A stretch of 64,000 nt of DNA from Candidatus Bathyarchaeia archaeon (lineage in GTDB: Archaea; Thermoproteota; Bathyarchaeia; 40CM-2-53-6): positions 96,001-160,000 of the forward strand of contig JBEKSC010000002.1 of the NCBI GenBank assembly GCA_049517415.1. Direction: 5' to 3'. The notes under the pieces were generated by a model. That model saw only the letters and a list, made by a program, of their open reading frames with translations. It searched no databases and was not told the DNA's origin. This document shows, piece after piece, positions 36,150 through 46,377 of the stretch (positions are counted from its first letter, which is position 1; each line of letters opens with the position of its first letter). The position numbers and the translations under genes were made by a program.

Positions 36150-36820
36150 TATCCCGCACGCAACTGGCCGGTATGATAGATCACTCGGTGCTGCGTCCTG
36201 ACTCGACCGAGGAGGATGTAAAGAATGGGTGCAAGTTGGCGGTTGACCTTGGTTTGGCCGCGGTTGTAGTCAACCCAGCACATGTTCCAATAGCGGCAAC
36301 TTACCTCAAGAATTCAGCCGTGAAGACTTGTAGCGTCATCTCTTTTCCGTTCGGCCTTTCCACGACGGAAGCGAAAGTCGCCGAAACAAAAGGCGTTCTG
36401 GCCGAAGGGGCAGAGGAAGTGGATATGGTTTTGAACTTCAGTGCCCTCCGCTCAGGCCGCGAGGGATACGTCTTGAATGAGGTAAAGAGCGTTGTAGGGT
36501 TGGCTAAGACTTACACGAAGAAAGTGGCTGTCAAGGTTATTCTTGAAACATGCTACCTGAATGATGCTGAGAAGGAGAAGGTGTGCCTATTGGCAGTTGA
36601 GGGGGGTGCCGATTTTGTAAAGACCTCCACAGGATTCGGCTCAGCCGGAGCCACTGTTGGTGACATTCGGCTGATGAGACGAACTGTTGGTTCGAGAGTG
36701 GGTGTGAAGGCAGCGGGTGGCATAAGAACCACCGACCAGGCGCTGCAAATGGTGGAGGCGGGGGCGAACAGAATAGGAACTAGCTCAAGCCTTTCCATTC
36801 TTGAAGGAATGACACGCTAA
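36146..36820 (+). CDS. deoC: Deoxyribose-phosphate aldolase
   Basis: IDHSVLRP, EVDMV, KVILET, FVKTSTGF, KAAGGIR, RIGTSS. Confidence 0.95.
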   Translation: MISRTQLAGMIDHSVLRPDSTEEDVKNGCKLAVDLGLAAVVVNPAHVPIAATYLKNSAVKTCSVISFPFGLSTTEAKVAETKGVLAEGAEEVDMVLNFSALRSGREGYVLNEVKSVVGLAKTYTKKVAVKVILETCYLNDAEKEKVCLLAVEGGADFVKTSTGFGSAGATVGDIRLMRRTVGSRVGVKAAGGIRTTDQALQMVEAGANRIGTSSSLSILEGMTR

Positions 36821-36893
36821 GATACGCTCATTTATGATTGAAAAATCATCTTTGCGAAATCTTATATCGGCCTCGGACAGCGATTGTTAGTTC

Positions 36894-38447
36894 ATGTCGA
36901 AGCCAACGGTCTTCGTTAGACAAGCTACGGGCCTCGTGAAGAGCGTTAGCCCGTGGGCGCTATTCTTCGCGATGCTTGGCGAGATAGGGTTCGGAACCGG
37001 CCTGCTGTTGGTGAACGTCGCGAACTCTTTCTTCTCGGACGGCAACCCGGGCGGTAACGGCGTTGATGCGACGCTGCTGCTTCTGTTTTTCGTAATTTTT
37101 GAGTCCTTCATCTTCTATCACGTTGTTCGTTCGGTTGGAAGGACGGGTGGGGATTACGTTTGGATGAGCAGGAATATTGGGCCCGTACTGGGCGGTGCGC
37201 TCATCCTCGGTTTCGTCTTCACTGGTATGCCGTTCTTGGCTGTGTCGGCGAACTGGTTCGTCACATTCTCACTCGCACCCAGCATATCTACAATCGCTGC
37301 GGTGTCAGGGAACAGCGGCCTGACTTCCTTCTCAGCGATGCTAACTACTTCGACGGCGTTGATAGTCATGGGATTGTCTTTGATTGCGGTATTAACAGCA
37401 GTTGACATAGTATCGCCCAGGTCCGGATTTCAACTGCTTGCAGCCCTAACCATAATACCGCTCATAGGCACATTCATTATGGCAGGCGTCTTCTTGGGTT
37501 TCGGCCCAGCTGGCATACAGGCTTCCGTCTCAAACTTTCTTTCACAAAACGGCGGTTCATACACGCAGATAGCGTCTCAATACGTTGGCCCCGGTGCGTC
37601 ACTTTCCGGCGTAGTGCTTCTCATTCCCTGGCTTTTCTTCACTCTGCCATGGGTTAACAACGCAGCAGCATTTTCAGGGGAGTTGAAGAATCTAAAGAGG
37701 TCGGCGTGGATAGGCACAGCGCTTCCCGGCGTTTTCAGCGGTCTGATGTTAGCCGGGTTCATCGCGTTGTTCAATTGGGGTTTGGGTTTCAATTTCGCAA
37801 TGCAAGCCCCGATCTCGTGGCCGGGTTCGTTGTATGCCATGGGCGTTGTCCCGAACATGCTAACAATCGCGACCATTGCGATTCGTGATAATCCGACTCT
37901 GATGTGGGTGATGAACGTGACCTTTGCCGTCTGGTACCTAGCTTCCCTTCAGCAGACGATTCTTTCGGTTTCGCGCTATATTCTTGGGATGAGTTTTGAT
38001 AGGCTGATACCCGTTCAACTCGCGCATGTTAGTGATAGGTTCCATTCGCCAACCGCAGCCCTATTGTTGTGTTTCGTGGTTGCGATTCCAATGGTATTCA
38101 TAGTTTCCTTAACAAACTGGACATCGCTTTACACTACGAGCGCTCTTGGGAGCGTGTTCTTTGCCTTCATCGGAATAACCGCGATAATCTATGGGTGGAG
38201 GAAGAGAAAGCAACTCGGGGGGACTGGGCCCGCTCTCATAGTATCCGGCTTGCTAATCGCCCCATTCTTCCTGTACGTTACATACCAGTTCCTGGCCCTA
38301 CCCTTCTACGGCATCAACAACATCTCATGGGGAATCATGCTCTTCTTCTGGGTTCTGGGCGCGCTGCTCTACCCCATAGGTAAATGGTACTACGGAAGGA
38401 AAGGGTTAGACCTAAGCCTAGTCTTCAAAGAACTTCCACCCGAATGA
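36894..38447 (+). CDS. APC family amino-acid permease
   Basis: VFVRQATGLVK, TGGDYVWMSR, FDRLIP, FKELPPE; many TM segments. Confidence 0.9.
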   Translation: MSKPTVFVRQATGLVKSVSPWALFFAMLGEIGFGTGLLLVNVANSFFSDGNPGGNGVDATLLLLFFVIFESFIFYHVVRSVGRTGGDYVWMSRNIGPVLGGALILGFVFTGMPFLAVSANWFVTFSLAPSISTIAAVSGNSGLTSFSAMLTTSTALIVMGLSLIAVLTAVDIVSPRSGFQLLAALTIIPLIGTFIMAGVFLGFGPAGIQASVSNFLSQNGGSYTQIASQYVGPGASLSGVVLLIPWLFFTLPWVNNAAAFSGELKNLKRSAWIGTALPGVFSGLMLAGFIALFNWGLGFNFAMQAPISWPGSLYAMGVVPNMLTIATIAIRDNPTLMWVMNVTFAVWYLASLQQTILSVSRYILGMSFDRLIPVQLAHVSDRFHSPTAALLLCFVVAIPMVFIVSLTNWTSLYTTSALGSVFFAFIGITAIIYGWRKRKQLGGTGPALIVSGLLIAPFFLYVTYQFLALPFYGINNISWGIMLFFWVLGALLYPIGKWYYGRKGLDLSLVFKELPPE

Positions 38448-38728
38448 ACCCCTGAATAACACAGGCCACCTCATCTGCGTCGTTAACAGGAAAACCAAAT
38501 CCCGTCGTTTGATCGACTCCACCCGGCACGAACGCCGACGACGCCATCGCTGAATACCTCTACGTAGAATGGATCACAAGAAAAGAGCATGCAAGGCTCC
38601 TGAAAACGCTGGGAATATTCGCTAACCCACCATAGAACTACTTCTTCTCCAAGTATTTGAGAACAAAAATTAGGGTTAATATTTTATACTAGAAACATCC
38701 TATTCTAGGGTTTGAGGCAGTCAGAGCC

Positions 38729-39046
38729 TTGAAACCAGTCCTTAACACGAAGGATGGAACTCTGAGCGTCGAAGGCTCTCGGTTCCTAGCTCCAAGGATA
38801 ACCGTGTCCTCGGAGATAACTAACCCCATAGGCCCTCTTAGTTTTTTGGGGCCAGTCGAACCGGAATACACCCCTGCGATTCCGGTAGAGTGCAAGTGCC
38901 ACGGAAGATGCAAAGTGGCTTTGAAACCTAAGTGCGTATGCCGATGCCACGGTAAAGGCCATAGCGAAGCAATAAGAAAAGTAAACCATACCATTGAGGA
39001 ATATGGGGAACACAATTCCCCTATTCTGAGGTATATCTATGCCTAA
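38729..39046 (+). CDS. Small Cys/His-rich protein
   Basis: CKCHGRC...KCVCRCHGKGH; overlaps integrase start. Confidence 0.55.
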   Translation: MKPVLNTKDGTLSVEGSRFLAPRITVSSEITNPIGPLSFLGPVEPEYTPAIPVECKCHGRCKVALKPKCVCRCHGKGHSEAIRKVNHTIEEYGEHNSPILRYIYA

Positions 39047-40241
39047 AGGAATACATCTAATTAACCCTAAACTAACCGCCTTCCGTCAAGACGCTAATAT
39101 CAAGAAGTGGCTGGATAGCCTGCATAAGAATACTAGGGCTGGTTATGAGTCATGCCTGTTTCAGCTATGCGACCAATTAGCCTTAACGGGATCGCAGGTA
39201 AAGGATCTAGCAAAAGATAACCCAATTGAGCTGTCTCTAAGAGTAAAGGTCGTAGTGAAGAGGCTTCAAAATACGCGTGAAGTTTCAGACAGGACCATAG
39301 GCTATCGACTAGCGGCATTAACTAACTACCTGAACCTGTTCGAATTAGAGGCCCCCAGACTGTTGGGGCTGAAAATTAAAAGAGGCAAGTCTGCCACGCA
39401 CCCGCTGATAAGCTGGGAACTAGCGAATAAGATAATTTCCCTAACCCCTGAGAAATATCAACCTGTCTTTAAGCTGATGCAATGGGGCCTAGACCTGGAA
39501 CGCATATGCCAAATCAACGTAAACCCATACGTCAAATCAATAGAGAAGAAAATTATGGACAGCGTTAAGGAGCAATTAGAGAACCCTAAGAATGATTTAA
39601 TCCGGTTAGACGTAGATGGCAGGAAGGGTAACGCTGATCCATATTACATAGTGTTGCCCAGAGAAGTAGCTGGCTTGCTGCCAGTCAGGACTATTAGATA
39701 TTCTGACATTATCAGTAAGGATGCGGTTAGGCGTAGTTGGCGTGTCGGACTGAAAAGAGCTGGCCTGCCGATAGATAGTAAACACGGCCCACATAATTTA
39801 CGCTCTTGCTGGCTGACCGAAGCCACAAAGAGGGGACTGGAACCGGTGCTCCGAGAATTCCAGCTCGGCCACTCAGTTGACAGCCTGAATTATCAGAGAA
39901 TCACGCAAGATTATGATTGGGTTTTAACCCAGTTCCGCAAGTCCTGGGCTATGAATGAACCTTCAGCAACGAGGAAGGAACTTGGTGAGCGAGATAAGAA
40001 AATTAGCGAACTAGAAAACCACAACGAGGAGCTTCGGCGGATTATCGGTGAAGACCTGTTGGAGCAGCAGTTGAAGCTACAAGACCAGATATTGCAGTTA
40101 CTTAAGGAACGGGGCCTCCGCACGCAGATGCCCATTTCAGAGTACCCGCCCGACATCAAGGAATTACAGGATCAACTAAACAGAACCACAGAACGGCTGC
40201 TTAGATTAGGATTAATTAAACCAGGGGACGAGTTCGGGTAA
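39039..40241 (+). CDS. Tyrosine recombinase/integrase with C-terminal coiled coil
   Basis: GRKGN, HNLR, LGH, NY motifs; first catalytic box reads GLDLER. Confidence 0.8.
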   Translation: MPKGIHLINPKLTAFRQDANIKKWLDSLHKNTRAGYESCLFQLCDQLALTGSQVKDLAKDNPIELSLRVKVVVKRLQNTREVSDRTIGYRLAALTNYLNLFELEAPRLLGLKIKRGKSATHPLISWELANKIISLTPEKYQPVFKLMQWGLDLERICQINVNPYVKSIEKKIMDSVKEQLENPKNDLIRLDVDGRKGNADPYYIVLPREVAGLLPVRTIRYSDIISKDAVRRSWRVGLKRAGLPIDSKHGPHNLRSCWLTEATKRGLEPVLREFQLGHSVDSLNYQRITQDYDWVLTQFRKSWAMNEPSATRKELGERDKKISELENHNEELRRIIGEDLLEQQLKLQDQILQLLKERGLRTQMPISEYPPDIKELQDQLNRTTERLLRLGLIKPGDEFG

Positions 40242-40434
40242 ATCACCGCCCCCCGCACTTCCATATTGTCTAGTTCCGCAATTTATGTTCTAATAGTCAT
40301 AATATATTCTCGACTATAACCTTAGTTATGGGTAGACTGTTACCGTAGGTAAGGATGAAAACCGATAAGTTTATATAGGTATATATTATAAGGGCTAAGC
40401 AAGGAGATACTTAAAAAGTATTTGGTGCTTAATA

Positions 40435-40629
40435 ATGAAGCAAATGAAGCGAAATATGCTAAGGGTGCAGGAAAGCCACCCGAACGTGAATCACAAGGAC
40501 TACTCGCAATTCAAAATCACGATTCCCGTTAACGAAGCTAGATTACTGAAACTGAGTCAGGGAGACTTACTCATAGCAACTATTCAGAACGATAAGCTCG
40601 TCTACAGTAAACTAGCAGGAGGGAATTAG
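40435..40629 (+). CDS. AbrB-like DNA-binding protein
   Basis: QFKITIP..ARLLKLSQGD.L. Confidence 0.75.
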   Translation: MKQMKRNMLRVQESHPNVNHKDYSQFKITIPVNEARLLKLSQGDLLIATIQNDKLVYSKLAGGN

Positions 40630-40633
40630 AATT

Positions 40634-41197
40634 ATGAAAAATGAAAAGAAAATTGAGCCGTGGATGCAAAACGCGGCGAATCGATTAGCGTCAACGACGA
40701 TTAAGGTAACGAGTCATGAATTCAAAGGAATTCCGTTCGGGGAACTCGTACTAAGATTAACGGATGGCAAAACAGTTCCATTCAACAAACTAACGGAAAT
40801 CCAGCTTAACTACTATAAAGAGAACGTATTACCGAACAGTCAAGGTAACCCCGCTAGGCAAGGAACACCTAGCGGAAGAAGCAGCAACCAAACAGGCAGT
40901 GGAAGTGGCAGTCAACTTGGTTCCCCAAGCCTAGATGATTCAAACGTATCAATGGACGATTTTCCGCAAAGCGAAGAACCAATTTGGATCAGGCAACCCG
41001 GACTAGGCTGCCGAGTAATTATAGTCGGAAGCAAAGACGAATTAGCGCAACTGAAAGCGGTAGGCGGCTTAACTGGTTGGGGTGTCGCCGGATATTATGA
41101 CGCAGGCGTGAGCCACCAGGGCGCATACTTCGTTTACTTGATACCTGACTCAGCCGCCGCGGATATTGATACAGGCTTAGGACACCAACCCAGTTGA
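40634..41197 (+). CDS. Hypothetical protein
   Basis: 187-aa ORF, GGAGG upstream, Ser/Gly linker. Confidence 0.65.
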   Translation: MKNEKKIEPWMQNAANRLASTTIKVTSHEFKGIPFGELVLRLTDGKTVPFNKLTEIQLNYYKENVLPNSQGNPARQGTPSGRSSNQTGSGSGSQLGSPSLDDSNVSMDDFPQSEEPIWIRQPGLGCRVIIVGSKDELAQLKAVGGLTGWGVAGYYDAGVSHQGAYFVYLIPDSAAADIDTGLGHQPS

Positions 41198-41209
41198 GGT
41201 AAGCAAGCG

Positions 41210-41599
41210 ATGTCAATTTTGACTGGGCCAGAAACCCCAAAGAAGATGTGCCCCATATGTGGGATCAGTTACAGTTACGAAATTCGGTTCAGAGAAATGC
41301 TCGGGTTGCGAGTCTGTCAGAAATGTTTTGATTCTCAGGGCATCGCTGACCAAATTCGGCAACTGAAAGCTCGGGCGCAGGGTGAACGTGAAGCACTAGA
41401 ACGAGCTATTGCTAAAGACAAAGCAGACCAAGCAGCTAATCAGAATCCAGCACCTAGCATCATGGGCAACTGCTATGAATGTGGGCTTCCGTCTGTCAAA
41501 CTCACCAAACTAAGTAATGGGCATTCCTATTGTCGTAGGTGCGCTGAACCCCGCAACAGAAGCGCAATGGGGTTAGTTGAAAGAAACCTGGCGCAGTAA
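41210..41599 (+). CDS. Double Zn-finger protein
   Basis: Four CxxC motifs around a helical linker. Confidence 0.7.
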   Translation: MSILTGPETPKKMCPICGISYSYEIRFREMLGLRVCQKCFDSQGIADQIRQLKARAQGEREALERAIAKDKADQAANQNPAPSIMGNCYECGLPSVKLTKLSNGHSYCRRCAEPRNRSAMGLVERNLAQ

Positions 41600-41759
41600 C
41601 GTGAAGCCTACTCCTCCTTTACCTAAAGTTCCTCGACCTCCACGACCCACGATTAAGATTCAATGCGCTAATTGTGGCCTAGAGAAAGAGGCGCTTCTTC
41701 CGCGCTACTGCCTCGACTGCAGCCGAGCCTATCACATGAGGCTAACTAAAGGCGAATGA
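41577..41759 (+). CDS. Small Zn-finger protein
   Basis: CANC...CLDC. Confidence 0.6.
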   Translation: MKETWRSNVKPTPPLPKVPRPPRPTIKIQCANCGLEKEALLPRYCLDCSRAYHMRLTKGE

Positions 41760-41762
41760 CTA

Positions 41763-42029
41763 ATGACTAACCCTAACCTGAAACCTCCTGAAACCTACCG
41801 GAAAAAACCAGTTAAAGTAACGTCAGCGGAATGCGTTGAATGTCACGCCACGTTCACGCCCCGCTTCAAGGTGCTAATCTACGAACCAATCTTTTGTGAC
41901 GCGTGTATTTCTAGGCTGGTGATTCTGGGAGTGAAGGCGATGCTGGACCGGCGAGGCAAAATCACCCATTACGAACAAGTCGCATCGAAGAAAGAAGAGC
42001 CGATCATGGAGGCCGCTGTTTACGTGTAG
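41763..42029 (+). CDS. Small Zn-finger protein
   Basis: CVEC...CDAC. Confidence 0.65.
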   Translation: MTNPNLKPPETYRKKPVKVTSAECVECHATFTPRFKVLIYEPIFCDACISRLVILGVKAMLDRRGKITHYEQVASKKEEPIMEAAVYV

Positions 42030-42123
42030 GTACAAAGCAGACGCCAGTAAAATTCATCCTGCAACCCCCCGAAATGAAAGGAGAAGAATCGGCATAATTT
42101 ACCAATCCCACAAATTCAACGAC

Positions 42124-42825
42124 TTGACCGCTAACCTAGAAGCCTTGAAACAACACGGCACCATAGCGGACTACCAAATCACCCAGTACGTAAGCGACAT
42201 TAACGAACCGGACATCATAATCGAATTAGCCCTCCTGGACGGACGAACAGTAAGAGTCGCCACAGAATGTAAGAATTGGAACCCGTACACAAGCAAAGGA
42301 GTACCCTATACCCTCAACTCAACGAACTACCAGCATGAAGTACGACCTAAGTTCTTTGAGAACGGCGCAAAGAAACCCTTCGATTACAGCCTAGCATTAT
42401 TCCATAATCCACTAGACCACACCCAAGCCGACTATCCACTAAACCGAGACGGCGTAAGATACGTGGACGACGAAGACCTATTCAGCACCCTGCTAGGCAT
42501 CCTCGAAGAAGAATACGGCCCTGAAGCATGGTCATGTATCTATAATGGGTATGCTATGCCTAGACGTGGGTTTAGTTATAGTGTAAGTAAGGGTAATTGG
42601 ATTAGTGGTTGTTCTAATGAATCTAATTTAGTGGGTTCAGTTGCGGCACCCCGAGCCCCGTTAGCTTCATGCGAGGGCGAGGCATTTGTCCGTGGGCCTG
42701 AGCCTTGTCCTCGTTGCGGCTGTGTGTTTTGTGGTTGCAGTAGCGCAATAACTAGTTCACATGTGACAGGTACGGCGTCCTCACGGACGCTTTACTATGG
42801 AGATAGTGTTTTTGGAGGACATTAA
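42124..42825 (+). CDS. PD-(D/E)xK (Mrr-like) nuclease-fold protein
   Basis: EPDIII...ATECKNW; Cys cluster near C-terminus. Confidence 0.6.
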   Translation: MTANLEALKQHGTIADYQITQYVSDINEPDIIIELALLDGRTVRVATECKNWNPYTSKGVPYTLNSTNYQHEVRPKFFENGAKKPFDYSLALFHNPLDHTQADYPLNRDGVRYVDDEDLFSTLLGILEEEYGPEAWSCIYNGYAMPRRGFSYSVSKGNWISGCSNESNLVGSVAAPRAPLASCEGEAFVRGPEPCPRCGCVFCGCSSAITSSHVTGTASSRTLYYGDSVFGGH

Positions 42826-43145
42826 GCAGCGTCAAAGGGGAAGCTCCCACAGGGGCGACGCTGAAGTCAACTCCAAACGCCTTCGTGGTAGTAGGCGACG
42901 AGCTCATTATCTCCATTCCCCAAAATATTCCTACATTACAACGCCTTCCTCGTTACGCCGACTGTGCTGGCGGTCGGCTAACTTGCTTGTTGGGGTCTCC
43001 GGACCCAAATGAAAACCCATTTCTCGGAGCCACAGAAATGTGGGTGACGGTCAAGCCTCCCCAACAATCCAACTTACCTTACAGCCCAAATTTTGCCGTA
43101 TGGTAATTTTTCCCCTATAACAAACCAGTTGGTGCGTAGTTCTCT

Positions 43146-43757
43146 TTGTTGCCCGATACCTCAGTTGTGATAGCTCTTATAGTAATGGAACTTCTTATAC
43201 TGCTGAATCTTGCGATGTCGAGTGATGAGGACGCAGTTGTAGTAGGCATCATGAGCCTAGGGGTCGTGGCTGCCCTTGGTATCTTGGAAGCCCCAGCTTA
43301 TGTTCCTTTGTCGTTAAAGGTTATTTGGTTAATTTGCGACGCTGCCCTAATCGTTCTTCTCTGTTATTGGTACATTTCGACGAAGCGTGCTGAGAGATTT
43401 CTTTTTGTGATTAAACCAACCCTTGCTCAATGGGCTAAAATGGTCGTCAACTATGCGAGTGGAAGGATTGTCATAGTTCAAGCTGGGATACCATCGAATG
43501 GGCGTTACCATGTCGTCCAAGAATTGTCTCATTTTGCTGAAGCCAAAGAATACTTGGAGCGGCGTTACAAAGATATCTATGGTAAGTGGACTGAAGCCAA
43601 TTCAGATGTTAAGAATTACAATGATTTGATTGACCGTGGCGAACAGGATACAGCATTATCTGCTCGGTATAAGTTGGGAGCTGTTGAAAGGTTAGACGCT
43701 TTTCGTAGAGACTTAACGACCCTATTGGAGAGGATAGATCTCGGTAAGGAGAGTTGA
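43146..43757 (+). CDS. Membrane protein (about 3 N-terminal TM helices)
   Basis: Hydrophobic N-terminus followed by a soluble helical domain. Confidence 0.65.
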   Translation: MLPDTSVVIALIVMELLILLNLAMSSDEDAVVVGIMSLGVVAALGILEAPAYVPLSLKVIWLICDAALIVLLCYWYISTKRAERFLFVIKPTLAQWAKMVVNYASGRIVIVQAGIPSNGRYHVVQELSHFAEAKEYLERRYKDIYGKWTEANSDVKNYNDLIDRGEQDTALSARYKLGAVERLDAFRRDLTTLLERIDLGKES

Positions 43758-44501
43758 AGTTAGGTGATGGGCTCAACATACACGGCTTAATACTTGCTTT
43801 CTGTATGATTGTCAACCACTTGTCCTTGCCAAAATCAGGGTTACCTTACAGATTATAGCCCAATAAATTCGGCTACGTAGGAGTAGGAATTATCTATCAT
43901 CGTAGTAGTAATAGTAATTCGATCGTTATTTCTTTACTGTGGGTTTAGGTTAATGGGTTACTGTGACTCGTTTCTTGTGTACTTGCCGTTTACGGTTAGT
44001 ATTGGTTGCTACATGTGTACCTGGACTGGTCTGAGTTAGTCGTGTTCCTCGTGAGGGCTGTTAACTTACTGGTATGCGACTTCCGAATGGTGAGAATTCT
44101 GCAGTAATCAAGTTAAGAGTAGTACCTGGCCTCGCCGCTGTGAGGCTTCCTTTCTTTTCTTCATGCGACCTCAAACAGCCCGTAATCAAACCTCTAATCT
44201 AACCCGCATAAGTATCGAATCGATATAGATTACCATAACTTATGGGAGTGCGTAGACTGATAGAGATGGTCAACCGATCCTAAGCACGGTTAATTATATG
44301 GCGTCGAATCGGAGCTTAATTCAGGTCGTTAGCGTTTAATTTACCCGTAAGTTTCCTGTTGGGGATGCCGTTTGCTAGCTTAACTCTGAAGGGGATGCCG
44401 CAAGGCTCCGGAAGCCTCCCCCCATTAGACGTTTAACTTAGGGATGTTTGGCGTTACCGCAATCTTAGAACGTTAGTTATGGAGTAATAAGTACTTGAAC
44501 G

Positions 44502-45011
44502 TTGGAAGCCTACACCATGAGTAAACGAGTCATAATTCTCCTGTTAGTTACGTTAATTGGTTTAACGATTAGCGACTTTACGCCTGCTTATGGGCAATTC
44601 AATGGTTACCCTCAAACCAGCCCCGCAAACCCGACAGCTAATCAACCAATTACTTTCAGTGTGACAATCTCGAACTCAGAAGTATACCTGGTTACATTTT
44701 CCATCTACCCTAACGCGTCCTTGAACTTATGTGATACTGGAGACTGGCTCCAGCTTAGTCCGTCCCTAACGCTTCATGCTTCGCCTAATAGTGAAAATGT
44801 TTGGAGCGCCACCTCAACGGCGGGCCTGCCTGCTGGGCTATACGGCCTTGTAGTCTACGCTTACTATGCTAATGTTGGTAGCCCAATGTGCACCGTCTTT
44901 AGGGTAGCGAAGCCGACGCTTCCCGTCCCTGAATCTAATGCAATCCAAATCGTAGCGTTCATGGCGCTCGCAGCTTCGCTATACTTACTACGACGCAGGA
45001 GGAACGAGTAA
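44502..45011 (+). CDS. Surface protein with PEF-CTERM-like sorting signal
   Basis: Signal peptide; VPES-TM-RRRR tail; likely ATG start at 44517. Confidence 0.75.
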   Translation: MEAYTMSKRVIILLLVTLIGLTISDFTPAYGQFNGYPQTSPANPTANQPITFSVTISNSEVYLVTFSIYPNASLNLCDTGDWLQLSPSLTLHASPNSENVWSATSTAGLPAGLYGLVVYAYYANVGSPMCTVFRVAKPTLPVPESNAIQIVAFMALAASLYLLRRRRNE

Positions 45012-45484
45012 TGCGGAATGCATGGATAATCGTCGTCACCGTCTTCCTTCTATTCACGCCTCTAGCGGTTAGTGTGGCGTACGGACAGCAGTTCAGCATA
45101 ACGACTTCCCCGCCAGTTCCTGTGGCCGGTCAATCTTTTACGTTTCATGTGGTAAGTGTTCCGCTTAGTCAGAATATGCTTATGTACCAAATACTGACTA
45201 CGGGCTGTCCGCAAATCCAGTGGAATACCACACCTCTTTCTCCTGTCGTTTCGAGTGATAAGAACGGTGACTTCGATTACACGCTAAGCTCAGGGTTGCC
45301 AGCAGGTTTCTACTGCATTCTCCTAATGTCGGACAATGGGAAGAACAATGGGGATTTCTCTGAAGTTTTCGGCATGTCAATAGTGGTTTCGCCTGCCAAG
45401 CCCGTGCCTGAGTTCAGCGCAACCGAAATCGTAGCGTTCACGGCCCTTGCAGCTTCCCTAATCGTTCTACGGCGGAGACACTAA
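45011..45484 (+). CDS. Surface protein with PEF-CTERM-like sorting signal (paralog of previous)
   Basis: Signal peptide; VPEF-TM-RRR tail; shared TSP..P.A.Q..TF.V and GLPAG.Y. Confidence 0.8.
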   Translation: MRNAWIIVVTVFLLFTPLAVSVAYGQQFSITTSPPVPVAGQSFTFHVVSVPLSQNMLMYQILTTGCPQIQWNTTPLSPVVSSDKNGDFDYTLSSGLPAGFYCILLMSDNGKNNGDFSEVFGMSIVVSPAKPVPEFSATEIVAFTALAASLIVLRRRH

Positions 45485-45514
45485 GACCCTAACGCTTGTA
45501 TGAGTAATAATAAC

Positions 45515-45952
45515 TCATTTTTGGGTTGATTTTCCGTGTTTCTTAATTAAAATGAATTTCTGAACAAAAATCCTCGTGTACTCCTCTAAATCCAACTTCA
45601 AAGCTTCTTCAGGTTTAACCCAAACGTAATCCTGCAGCTCCCGCCCATCCAACTTCACCTTAGAACTCTTCGCTTTCAGAACATAGTCCATGAAGATGAA
45701 GTGTTCGTGCTTGTGAAAGCCCTTCGGGTAAATTGCCTGCTGAACGATCAGCAGTTCAACCGGTTCGGCCTCCAAGCCTGTCTCCTCCTTCACCTCTCGC
45801 CTAATCGCATCCTCCGACCGTTCTCCAAGCTCAATATGGCCGCCTGGGACGGTGTACTTGTCGCCCCACTTGTGCGAGCGAACAATGAGAACCTCGCCCT
45901 TCTCGTTTACGACGAGGGCGCCGACTGTGGCTTCAGGGTAAGTTTGGGTCAA
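45515..45952 (-). CDS. Nudix hydrolase (C-terminus supplied by the element)
   Basis: Nudix box GGHIELGERSEDAIRREVKEETG. Confidence 0.93.
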   Translation of the reverse strand: MTQTYPEATVGALVVNEKGEVLIVRSHKWGDKYTVPGGHIELGERSEDAIRREVKEETGLEAEPVELLIVQQAIYPKGFHKHEHFIFMDYVLKAKSSKVKLDGRELQDYVWVKPEEALKLDLEEYTRIFVQKFILIKKHGKSTQK

Positions 45953-46003
45953 AGTAACACTTTCTCGGAAGGAAGCGTCTTAGGTCACTCCAGTTGCTGG
46001 GCT

Positions 46004-46192
46004 CTAGCTCCTGCCCATCATCGTACCGATAACTCCAACGACAGAGATCAGGCCCCCAACTATCAAAATGAGGGGCTCCTGTGTTCTTAGGTAGACTAGG
46101 CCTGTGAAGACGATCAGTGCCATTAGGCCTGTGACGTTGACCATGGCTACTCTTGTTTGCGGCCTCAAGCCCGTGCACCAACTAGCAATCAA
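46004..46192 (-). CDS. Small 2-TM membrane protein
   Basis: Two hydrophobic stretches; start uncertain. Confidence 0.45.
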   Translation of the reverse strand: MIASWCTGLRPQTRVAMVNVTGLMALIVFTGLVYLRTQEPLILIVGGLISVVGVIGTMMGRS

Positions 46193-46377
46193 TCAAGAGC
46201 TCCCCGTAGCCATCTATATTTCTATTCTTCCAAGGGAATCTAATAACAAGGCAAACCGCATTTAGAGGGAAGGCGGCGCAGTTCATCTTGAGTACGACAC
46301 CGAAACGTACTACGCGCAACTTGCGCTGACTAAAGCGGATGAAGACAGCTGGAGGCTGAGTCACGCCAACAACTCCT

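Follow-up and report, generated by a model that had tools for sequence, protein, structure and literature searches.

The window that we analyzed, a stretch of 64,000 nt from a Candidatus Bathyarchaeia archaeon (assembly GCA_049517415.1, genome of 2.65 Mb; contig JBEKSC010000002.1, positions 96,001-160,000 of the forward strand), contains a 6,901-bp element inserted into the last codons of a gene that encodes a Nudix hydrolase. Our preferred reading, which we hold with high confidence, is that this is a non-viral element integrated at the 3′ end of the Nudix gene by a tyrosine recombinase, and that its excision would restore the native tail of the protein. The insertion had been proposed in an earlier note made from the sequence alone; that its integrase lacks the first catalytic arginine (Arg-I), that the site has been hit repeatedly and that the same genome holds three sister elements are features beyond that note.

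The element is bounded by a direct repeat of the decamer GAACAAAAAT, which occurs nine times in the genome (both strands) and only twice in the window, at the two positions that the earlier note had named (Table 1). Both reading frames are also as claimed there: on the minus strand the Nudix gene reads through the right core and ends with QKFILIKKHGKSTQK and a stop codon, and the left core continues in frame as LKYLEKK and a stop codon. The suggestion that excision would restore a natural gene end is borne out by the closest ortholog, in the relative G014 (93% amino acid identity), which ends with YTRNFVLKYLEKK, that is, with the same FVLKYLEKK tail; a similar xKYL tail is found in most of the 27 Nudix orthologs compared from other genomes (L002-L028). 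In the alignment to G014, window positions 45562-46265 and 38534-38667 are adjacent blocks that overlap by a single copy of the core, so the empty site that the note had asked for is exact; the site is uninterrupted in G021 and G018 as well. A 10-bp repeat alone is not beyond chance, 31 of 400 random 1,320-nt zones having a 10-mer in common with the final 76 nt of this gene, so it is the empty site in G014 that decides that the insertion is real; thus, insertion into the last codons of the Nudix gene is confirmed.

In the mechanism that we propose as most likely, the resident integrase would have joined a circular intermediate to the I-F-V codons close to the 3′ end of the Nudix gene by recombination at the 10-bp core, in the manner of other tyrosine recombinases. 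The last seven codons of the host gene now lie on the far side of the element, and element DNA supplies a 15-residue tail and a stop codon; the hydrolase domain stays whole, with its Pfam domain located entirely upstream of the C-terminal swap. The element probably lacks genes for its own replication or transfer and would spread passively or with a helper.

The same arrangement is found in independent metagenomic data. Single contigs span window positions 36500-44615 without differences in three of four metagenome runs, and an independent metagenome contig (L097) is identical over 11,828 bp that comprise the element and its left flank. The runs that carry this DNA are peat, wetland and soil metagenomes; no RNA dataset is among those listed. 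The empty-site joint (38664 to 45571) also occurs in contigs of three of the four runs, with five differing letters between its sides; it matches a co-occurring relative rather than this strain. The GC content of the element is 46.5% (genome, 50.1%). Rfam yielded nothing over positions 38400-45700 at E values up to 1, and scans for sigma-70-type promoters and terminators, models that are not suited to archaea, were at chance level.

The 400-aa open reading frame (ORF) near the left end is, as judged from profile searches and a structural model, a tyrosine recombinase. Pfam gives no match to the sequence at E values up to 0.5, and other collections give only faint ones (XerA, E 0.004, in NCBIfam; a phage integrase family, E 0.009, in PHROG); a profile built from 27 members of its family matches the archaeal XerA 4a8e at E 3.5e-9. 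The model (mean pLDDT, the predicted local distance difference test, of 88.5) has the core-binding and catalytic fold of the superfamily, the top rows from both Foldseek and VIA are all tyrosine recombinases (XerA, XerH, Brujita, lambda, IntI4), and the match to the SSV1 catalytic domain has a Z score of 13.4 with a root-mean-square deviation of 2.8 over 152 residues. In the fold matches, core-binding domains are aligned from model residues 9-18 onward, which leaves no room for an N-terminal arm-binding domain. The ORF is intact and the attachment (att) core lies 369 bp upstream of it, so this is not a split integrase of the SSV1/pTN3 type.

The catalytic residues K196, H252-x-x-R255, H278 and Y285 are present, but the Arg-I expected of the superfamily is absent: where XerA has GLRVSEL the family profile has GLDAERF, and the box-I position in the window integrase is Asp152. 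A second arginine, R195, is located beside the hairpin lysine, and the sequence fits the downstream-Arg pattern of the IntCTnDOT subgroup; from this pattern, we infer that Arg195 in the β-hairpin may stand in for the missing box-I residue. The same pattern is found in the relatives that we aligned (146 proteins of at least 250 aa out of 163 collected; the best 150 of 1,846 matches, which do not reach the edge of the family). No relative has Arg in the Arg-I column (Gly in 98, Asp in 43, another residue in five), and every one has Arg beside the hairpin lysine (column 195 in 136, column 196 in 10). The remaining catalytic residues are kept: Lys in 134, His and Arg of His-x-x-Arg in 143 and 141, the second His in 143 and Tyr in 142.

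Across the phylum, 71 of the 301 genomes searched gave matches. Among the best 30 loci (one of which is the window gene), 17 are without Arg-I, all with an Arg one or two residues before the lysine; 13 have Arg-I, 10 of them without the hairpin Arg and three poorly aligned. In a quick tree the two groups are parted by a single branch (support of 85 in the SH-aLRT, the Shimodaira-Hasegawa-like approximate likelihood-ratio test). When 25 family members were scanned with PF00589, four matched at E up to 0.001 and one was above the cut-off; Pfam-based surveys therefore undercount the mobilome of this abundant class of sediment and peat archaea. A 46%-identical integrase (P0006) comes from a source named as Bathyarchaeia. 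The closest integrases found with genomic context (L079 and L098, 46-50% identical) adjoin other genes, which suggests that targets change quickly. A short-pattern search, a method for which an alignment of the family is too divergent, found no relative in viral contigs or named genome contigs.

Insertions are found at the same codons of the Nudix gene in three species, that is, in the window genome, in G013 and in G015. In G013 (L064), an 8-bp word at the Nudix F-V codons recurs 89 bp later; the gene ends FVQEFIL..., with native-type KYLE after the second copy, and the first 14 nt after the core agree with the end of the window element at 12 positions, vs 4-9 in the other 19 loci. In G015 (L067), a 562-bp insert with one gene for a zinc-ribbon membrane protein is followed by the displaced native-type tail FVSKYLSSRY and a stop codon. 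None of the 20 Nudix loci has a family integrase downstream of the Nudix gene, so we read the inserts in G013 and G015 as probable decayed remnants that fix a new tail. In G010 and G006 the tail resembles that of the element (VHFILY...) and the gap is longer, without a clear displaced tail; these loci are only suggestive of further use of the site. G013 also has a 14-bp repeat 8.2 kb further downstream, which falls inside the end of an unrelated gene and was treated as chance.

A profile search identified four full family integrases in this genome, each at one end of an insertion that is bounded by an 8-14-bp direct repeat and for which an empty site is seen in relatives (Table 1); together, the four elements total about 35 kb. 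That four members without Arg-I each bound such an element implies that the family has been active without this residue. At the C18 site, the G014 gene ends HMFQIGFKG and the occupied gene ends HMFG; the layout is that of the window element, that is, the integrase adjoins the displaced tail and is antisense to the host gene. At the C1 site, the target gene begins MKRVALYLQDKH unbroken in G014, G018 and G021, and in this genome the element supplies a new start and N-terminus; the original start remains next to the integrase both here and in L093, a relative with the same site filled. The C5 element lies just upstream of a gene that we take to encode ribosomal protein L40e. Its integrase has His-x-x-Val in place of His-x-x-Arg and is possibly inactive; the element also encodes a protein with an ECKNW motif. 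In G003 (L089), the element is at the 5′ end of what is presumably proS (probable prolyl-tRNA synthetase) and its integrase is frameshifted; immediately upstream of the target gene, the frame contributed by the element shows no ATG. Loci with candidate cores and no verified empty site (L080, L082, L085, L086), as well as those for which no core was found (L079, L081, L084, L088, L090, L091, L092, L094), are outside the target count.

In 22 loci scanned with ARAGORN, the only tRNA was distant from any element end, and the earlier note was correct that the window element targets a protein gene instead of a tRNA. A tRNA gene is nearby in six of the 17 Arg-I-less loci from the phylum search, so tRNA-free siting is not general to the Arg-I-less group.

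The C18 element also provides evidence for an exchange of integrases. It shares with the window element a 105-aa ORF (73% nucleotide identity over 312 bp) and a surface-protein gene (91% over 591 bp), and the integrases are 27% identical. The 59 bp directly after the stop codon of the C18 integrase match the final 18 codons of the window integrase at 90% identity; because P0002 has a homologous C-terminus, this stub is integrase DNA. Most simply, C18 would have carried a window-type integrase that it later replaced, thereby gaining a new target.

A wider picture is plausible, if somewhat short of an even chance: a large, mostly unannotated archaeal family would have moved its first catalytic Arg to the β-hairpin, and in this Bathyarchaeia family it would drive elements that avoid tRNA genes, use the ends or promoters of protein genes, retarget by integrase swap within a shared backbone and decay to scars that fix new N- or C-termini, thereby rewriting protein ends across a genus.

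Table 1. Features of the window element and its surroundings (window coordinates), and related elements in this genome and relatives
Feature	Position	Strand	Basis or description
Left attachment core, 10 bp	38661..38670		Direct repeat and G014 alignment
Right attachment core, 10 bp (I-F-V codons on minus strand)	45562..45571		Direct repeat and G014 alignment
Displaced native Nudix 3′ end, LKYLEKK and stop	38638..38660	-	Same peptide closes G014 ortholog
New Nudix C-terminus and stop from element, QKFILIKKHGKSTQK	45515..45561	-	Reading frame; ortholog comparison
Host Nudix hydrolase gene (target)	45515..45952	-	PF00293, E 8e-24, residues 8-132
Last 33 codons of convergent host gene (rest gone; outside element)	38534..38635	+	Alignment to relatives
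105-aa Cys/His-rich ORF, overlaps integrase start by 8 nt	38729..39046	+	Candidate accessory or directionality factor
Tyrosine recombinase, 400 aa	39039..40241	+	Profile, model and fold searches; C-terminal coiled coil
64-aa AbrB/MazE-like small regulator (weak)	40435..40629	+	NCBIfam MazE-type, E 0.06, far below cut-off
187-aa orphan ORF	40634..41197	+	No relative found
Three small overlapping or abutting CxxC (zinc-finger-like) ORFs, 129, 60 and 88 aa	41210..42029	+	Pfam zinc-finger, sub-threshold only
233-aa orphan with PD...ECK motif	42124..42825	+	Possible PD-(D/E)xK nuclease, lead only
203-aa ORF, hydrophobic N-terminal half (membrane protein)	43146..43757	+	Sequence; no family match
Two paralogous secreted proteins, 169 and 157 aa, PVPE-transmembrane-basic C-termini	44502..45484	+	PEF-CTERM-like cargo
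Sister element C18, 10,799 bp	C18:25726-36538 (L108)		14-bp core; 3′ end of Lrp/AsnC gene
Sister element C1, 9,699 bp	C1:180125-189831 (L109)		8-bp core; 5′ end of LLM-class F420 oxidoreductase gene
Sister element C5, 7,282 bp	C5:60329-67621 (L110)		11-bp core; intergenic, just upstream of a gene; uninterrupted in G014, G018, G021
L083 (relative), 4,223 bp			13-bp core just past stop codon; empty site in this genome
L087 (relative), 10,262 bp			12-bp core in promoter region; empty site in this genome
L089 (G003), 8,534 bp			11-bp core; gene 5′ end
L093 (relative), 8,149 bp			25-bp core; same LLM site as C1

The main ORFs of the element are all on the plus strand, as the earlier note had observed. 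Homologs of the 105-aa ORF are found directly upstream of the integrase in C18 (62% amino acid identity), C5 (36%), L083 and L100; it has no family match of weight (Pfam, NCBIfam, PHROG) and one homolog in a protein search, and it may assist excision. The 187-aa ORF is without relatives in the other 104 genomes searched from the order; its model gave no viral fold match under E 0.001, a search that a pLDDT of 37 for this single-sequence model makes meaningless. The 233-aa ORF found only itself in a protein search and in 105 genomes. Its Atlas feature scores to restriction-endonuclease-like clusters are 0.80-0.84, below the bar of 0.9, and its pairwise match to the ECKNW protein of the C5 element is weak (E 0.005); its frame is open for 63 codons further upstream (41935-42123), into the 88-aa ORF and without a common start codon, so a frameshift fusion or an unusual start is possible. 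The secreted paralogs contain a 77-nt repeat (D1), and it is here that 591 bp are 91% identical to C18, whose paralog matches TIGR03024 at E 0.024, below the cut-off; across the genome, a VPE/IPE-transmembrane-basic motif closes 11 ORFs, of which the window and C18 elements hold three. One weak PADLOC match among nine proteins, to a TniQ zinc-finger, was disregarded.

The host sequence to the left of the element records a separate, second rearrangement. The usual neighbor of the Nudix gene, in 16 of 20 relative loci, is a convergent gene that is truncated here, the break being 127 bp from the left core of the element; beyond the break is a block with a phosphomutase, deoC and an APC permease that is not adjacent to the Nudix gene in relatives. 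Thus, the APC permease region is not the native neighbor for which the earlier note had taken it (one of the 20 loci has a paralog, 24% identical and 10 kb off). That note had made its case depend on this adjacency and on the orthologous tails; the permease is indeed non-adjacent in relatives, but the tails are of the xKYL type and not that of the element.

Side observations on the sister loci are that C18 carries an RNase H-like gene; that an intergenic repeat of roughly 45 bp at L110:12826-12908 has at least 10 copies per genome in G014, G018 and G021; that in L081 (G026) the family integrase is within an 859-codon open frame that is apparently continuous with the upstream host gene; and that in L080 (G079) an Arg-I-less integrase is next to a second protein with a Pfam integrase match and an unknown ORF of 1,020 aa.

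Several observations weigh against integration by the resident integrase or against its wider interpretation. The search for a circular junction that the earlier note had recommended found none, and no same-strain empty site, in contigs of four runs; contigs drop rare forms, so the missing circle does not speak for inactivity. Around the core, inverted symmetry does not reach significance (best, 8/12 arm matches, with 93 of 500 shuffles as good), and dyad symmetry was significant at none of 12 mapped or candidate sites in an inverted-arm test that included a 6-8-bp spacer model. The orphan ORFs have no usable models, and replication or virion genes may be hidden among them. Finally, the loss of Arg-I and the gain of the hairpin Arg fall on one branch of the quick tree and so represent one event, not many.

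Among the alternatives, a small provirus or satellite with virion or replication genes too divergent to recognize fares best, and we consider it unlikely. An operon of small zinc-finger ORFs after an AbrB-like gene, with membrane proteins, is like the genomes of small archaeal viruses; the language-model neighbors of the integrase include viral clusters; and a few loci in a family of mixed gene content have Prim-Pol, Cdc6 or ParB genes near the integrase (L090, L087, L084). The 12 ORFs of the element, scanned for recognizable families with Pfam, NCBIfam and PHROG, yielded no virion, conjugation, casposon, Rep, primase, helicase or relaxase family, in agreement with the earlier note for Rep, primase, capsid and relaxase; the best PHROG match is the faint one of the integrase itself. 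Relatives of the integrase, the 187-aa ORF and the 233-aa ORF are absent from the viral contigs searched, sister elements have almost nothing in common beyond the integrase and are as small as 4.2 kb (L083), and contigs cross the left end at uniform depth. The earlier note had offered satellite, provirus and tyrosine-recombinase element as labels; a non-viral tyrosine-recombinase element fits best, nothing found supporting the other two.

A low-specificity transposon, similar to Tn916 or Tn554, for which the Nudix gene was a chance target, is slightly less probable still. The core is short and AT-rich, and the closest integrases (L079, L098) are beside other genes; against this, three species are hit at the same two Nudix codons, the LLM-gene site is filled in two species, and there is one copy per site, with no second window element in the genome. 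We likewise give little weight, and somewhat less, to the possibility that the resident integrase is dead or is only a DNA-binding repressor and that another recombinase, for example, the host XerA, moves the element. Arg-I is described as strictly preserved outside the IntCTnDOT and IntDes subgroups in the accessible text of PMC8138268, recombinase-fold repressors are among the fold matches (at lower Z), and the excised form is absent from the contigs of the four runs. But the other catalytic residues are kept in 134-143 of the 146 relatives, and each family member is located at the end of an element with a core of its own; because these cores differ from one another, a single host enzyme would not explain them, and C1 and L093, with related integrases, use one site. 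A last alternative, that the 10-bp match is due to chance and the region is no more than a variable island of the ordinary kind or an artefact of assembly, is favored only by the frequency of equal matches in random zones and by the non-neighboring APC permease; it is refuted for practical purposes by an empty site in G014 that is exact to the base, by the identity of L097 and by the single contigs in three of four runs.

With integration by a tyrosine recombinase as the preferred reading, the element itself adds a further example to the cryptic integrated elements (CIE), and the integrase family is what matters. A family of enzymes that lack Arg-I, for which a single substitute residue is predicted, makes it possible to test directly how much change the tyrosine-recombinase active site tolerates. 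Cores of 8-14 bp in many host genes, with an apparent integrase swap, are natural material on how targets change, an insight that bears on the engineering of site-specific integrases, and scars at the same Nudix codons in other species point to a route by which host proteins could gain new termini. We found no publication on Arg-I-less archaeal integrases or on such elements in Bathyarchaeia in a literature search mostly without subscription journals.

The closest parallel is with the thaumarchaeal CIE (Krupovic et al. 2019, PMC6563490), from which the habit of swapping gene ends is already known. According to the accessible text of that study, those elements are also a few kb in length, encode a tyrosine recombinase and have a short att core (typically 8-26 bp); the integrase is their sole signature gene, and many are without a recognizable replication gene. 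The window element shares an integrase and direct repeats with an empty site, and no recognizable virion, conjugation or casposon genes. The 3′ ends of protein genes are used by 14 of 68 mapped thaumarchaeal elements, so a protein-gene target is less unusual than the earlier note had implied; one target is an AsnC gene, the family used by C18, and NitEve-E2 is inserted in the 3′-distal part of a protein gene and supplies a new stop codon. The differences are the Bathyarchaeia host; an integrase without Arg-I, a property not mentioned for CIE in the available portion of the paper (CIE integrases being compared by description only); and sister elements that also replace gene 5′ ends, together with evidence that integrases are exchanged and that small scars mark this same site.

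An absent or shifted first Arg is also characteristic of IntDOT/IntCTnDOT and IntDes; in IntDOT, an Arg further downstream substitutes for the first Arg of the RKHRH pentad (Smyshlyaev et al. 2021, PMC8138268, as given in its accessible text). Unlike the window integrase, those enzymes are bacterial, have an N-terminal arm-binding domain and vary in the Arg used; the window model starts with core-binding helices at about residue 10 and closes with a coiled coil, and none of the 146 aligned relatives has Arg-I. The loss of Arg-I in the two groups is probably convergent. As described in the accessible part of PMC11529989, Yucahu-i of Atabeyarchaeia is also an element of a wetland archaeon, of ~10 kb, with an 11-bp AT-rich core, the integrase first and a nuclease-type cargo gene; unlike the window element, which is known from its integrated form, it encodes an SF3 helicase and has been observed in circular form. 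Streptococcal mutT integrative and conjugative elements likewise target a Nudix gene, but in the available account (PMC4701971) they rely on triplets of serine integrases, interrupt the gene and are conjugative, whereas the window tyrosine recombinase leaves the Nudix domain whole.

The archaeal integrases of SSV1 and pTN3 (suicidal), pNOB8 and SNJ2, together with XerA and fam30-08, have the same fold (Badel et al. 2021, PMC8371274, from the part of the text available), but the consensus of those families begins with Arg-I, and the window integrase is not split by att. In SNJ2, small helper ORFs share an operon with the integrase gene, a layout to which that of the 105-aa ORF may be compared. 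Like the window family, with which it is compared by description only, fam30-08 has no Pfam matches; among the rows listed for it, most are Thermoplasmatales, and it includes some Bathyarchaeota proteins. Although we found no Arg-I-less archaeal integrase family in print, in literature that was partly accessible, the published CIE integrases and fam30-08 may overlap with the family that we describe.

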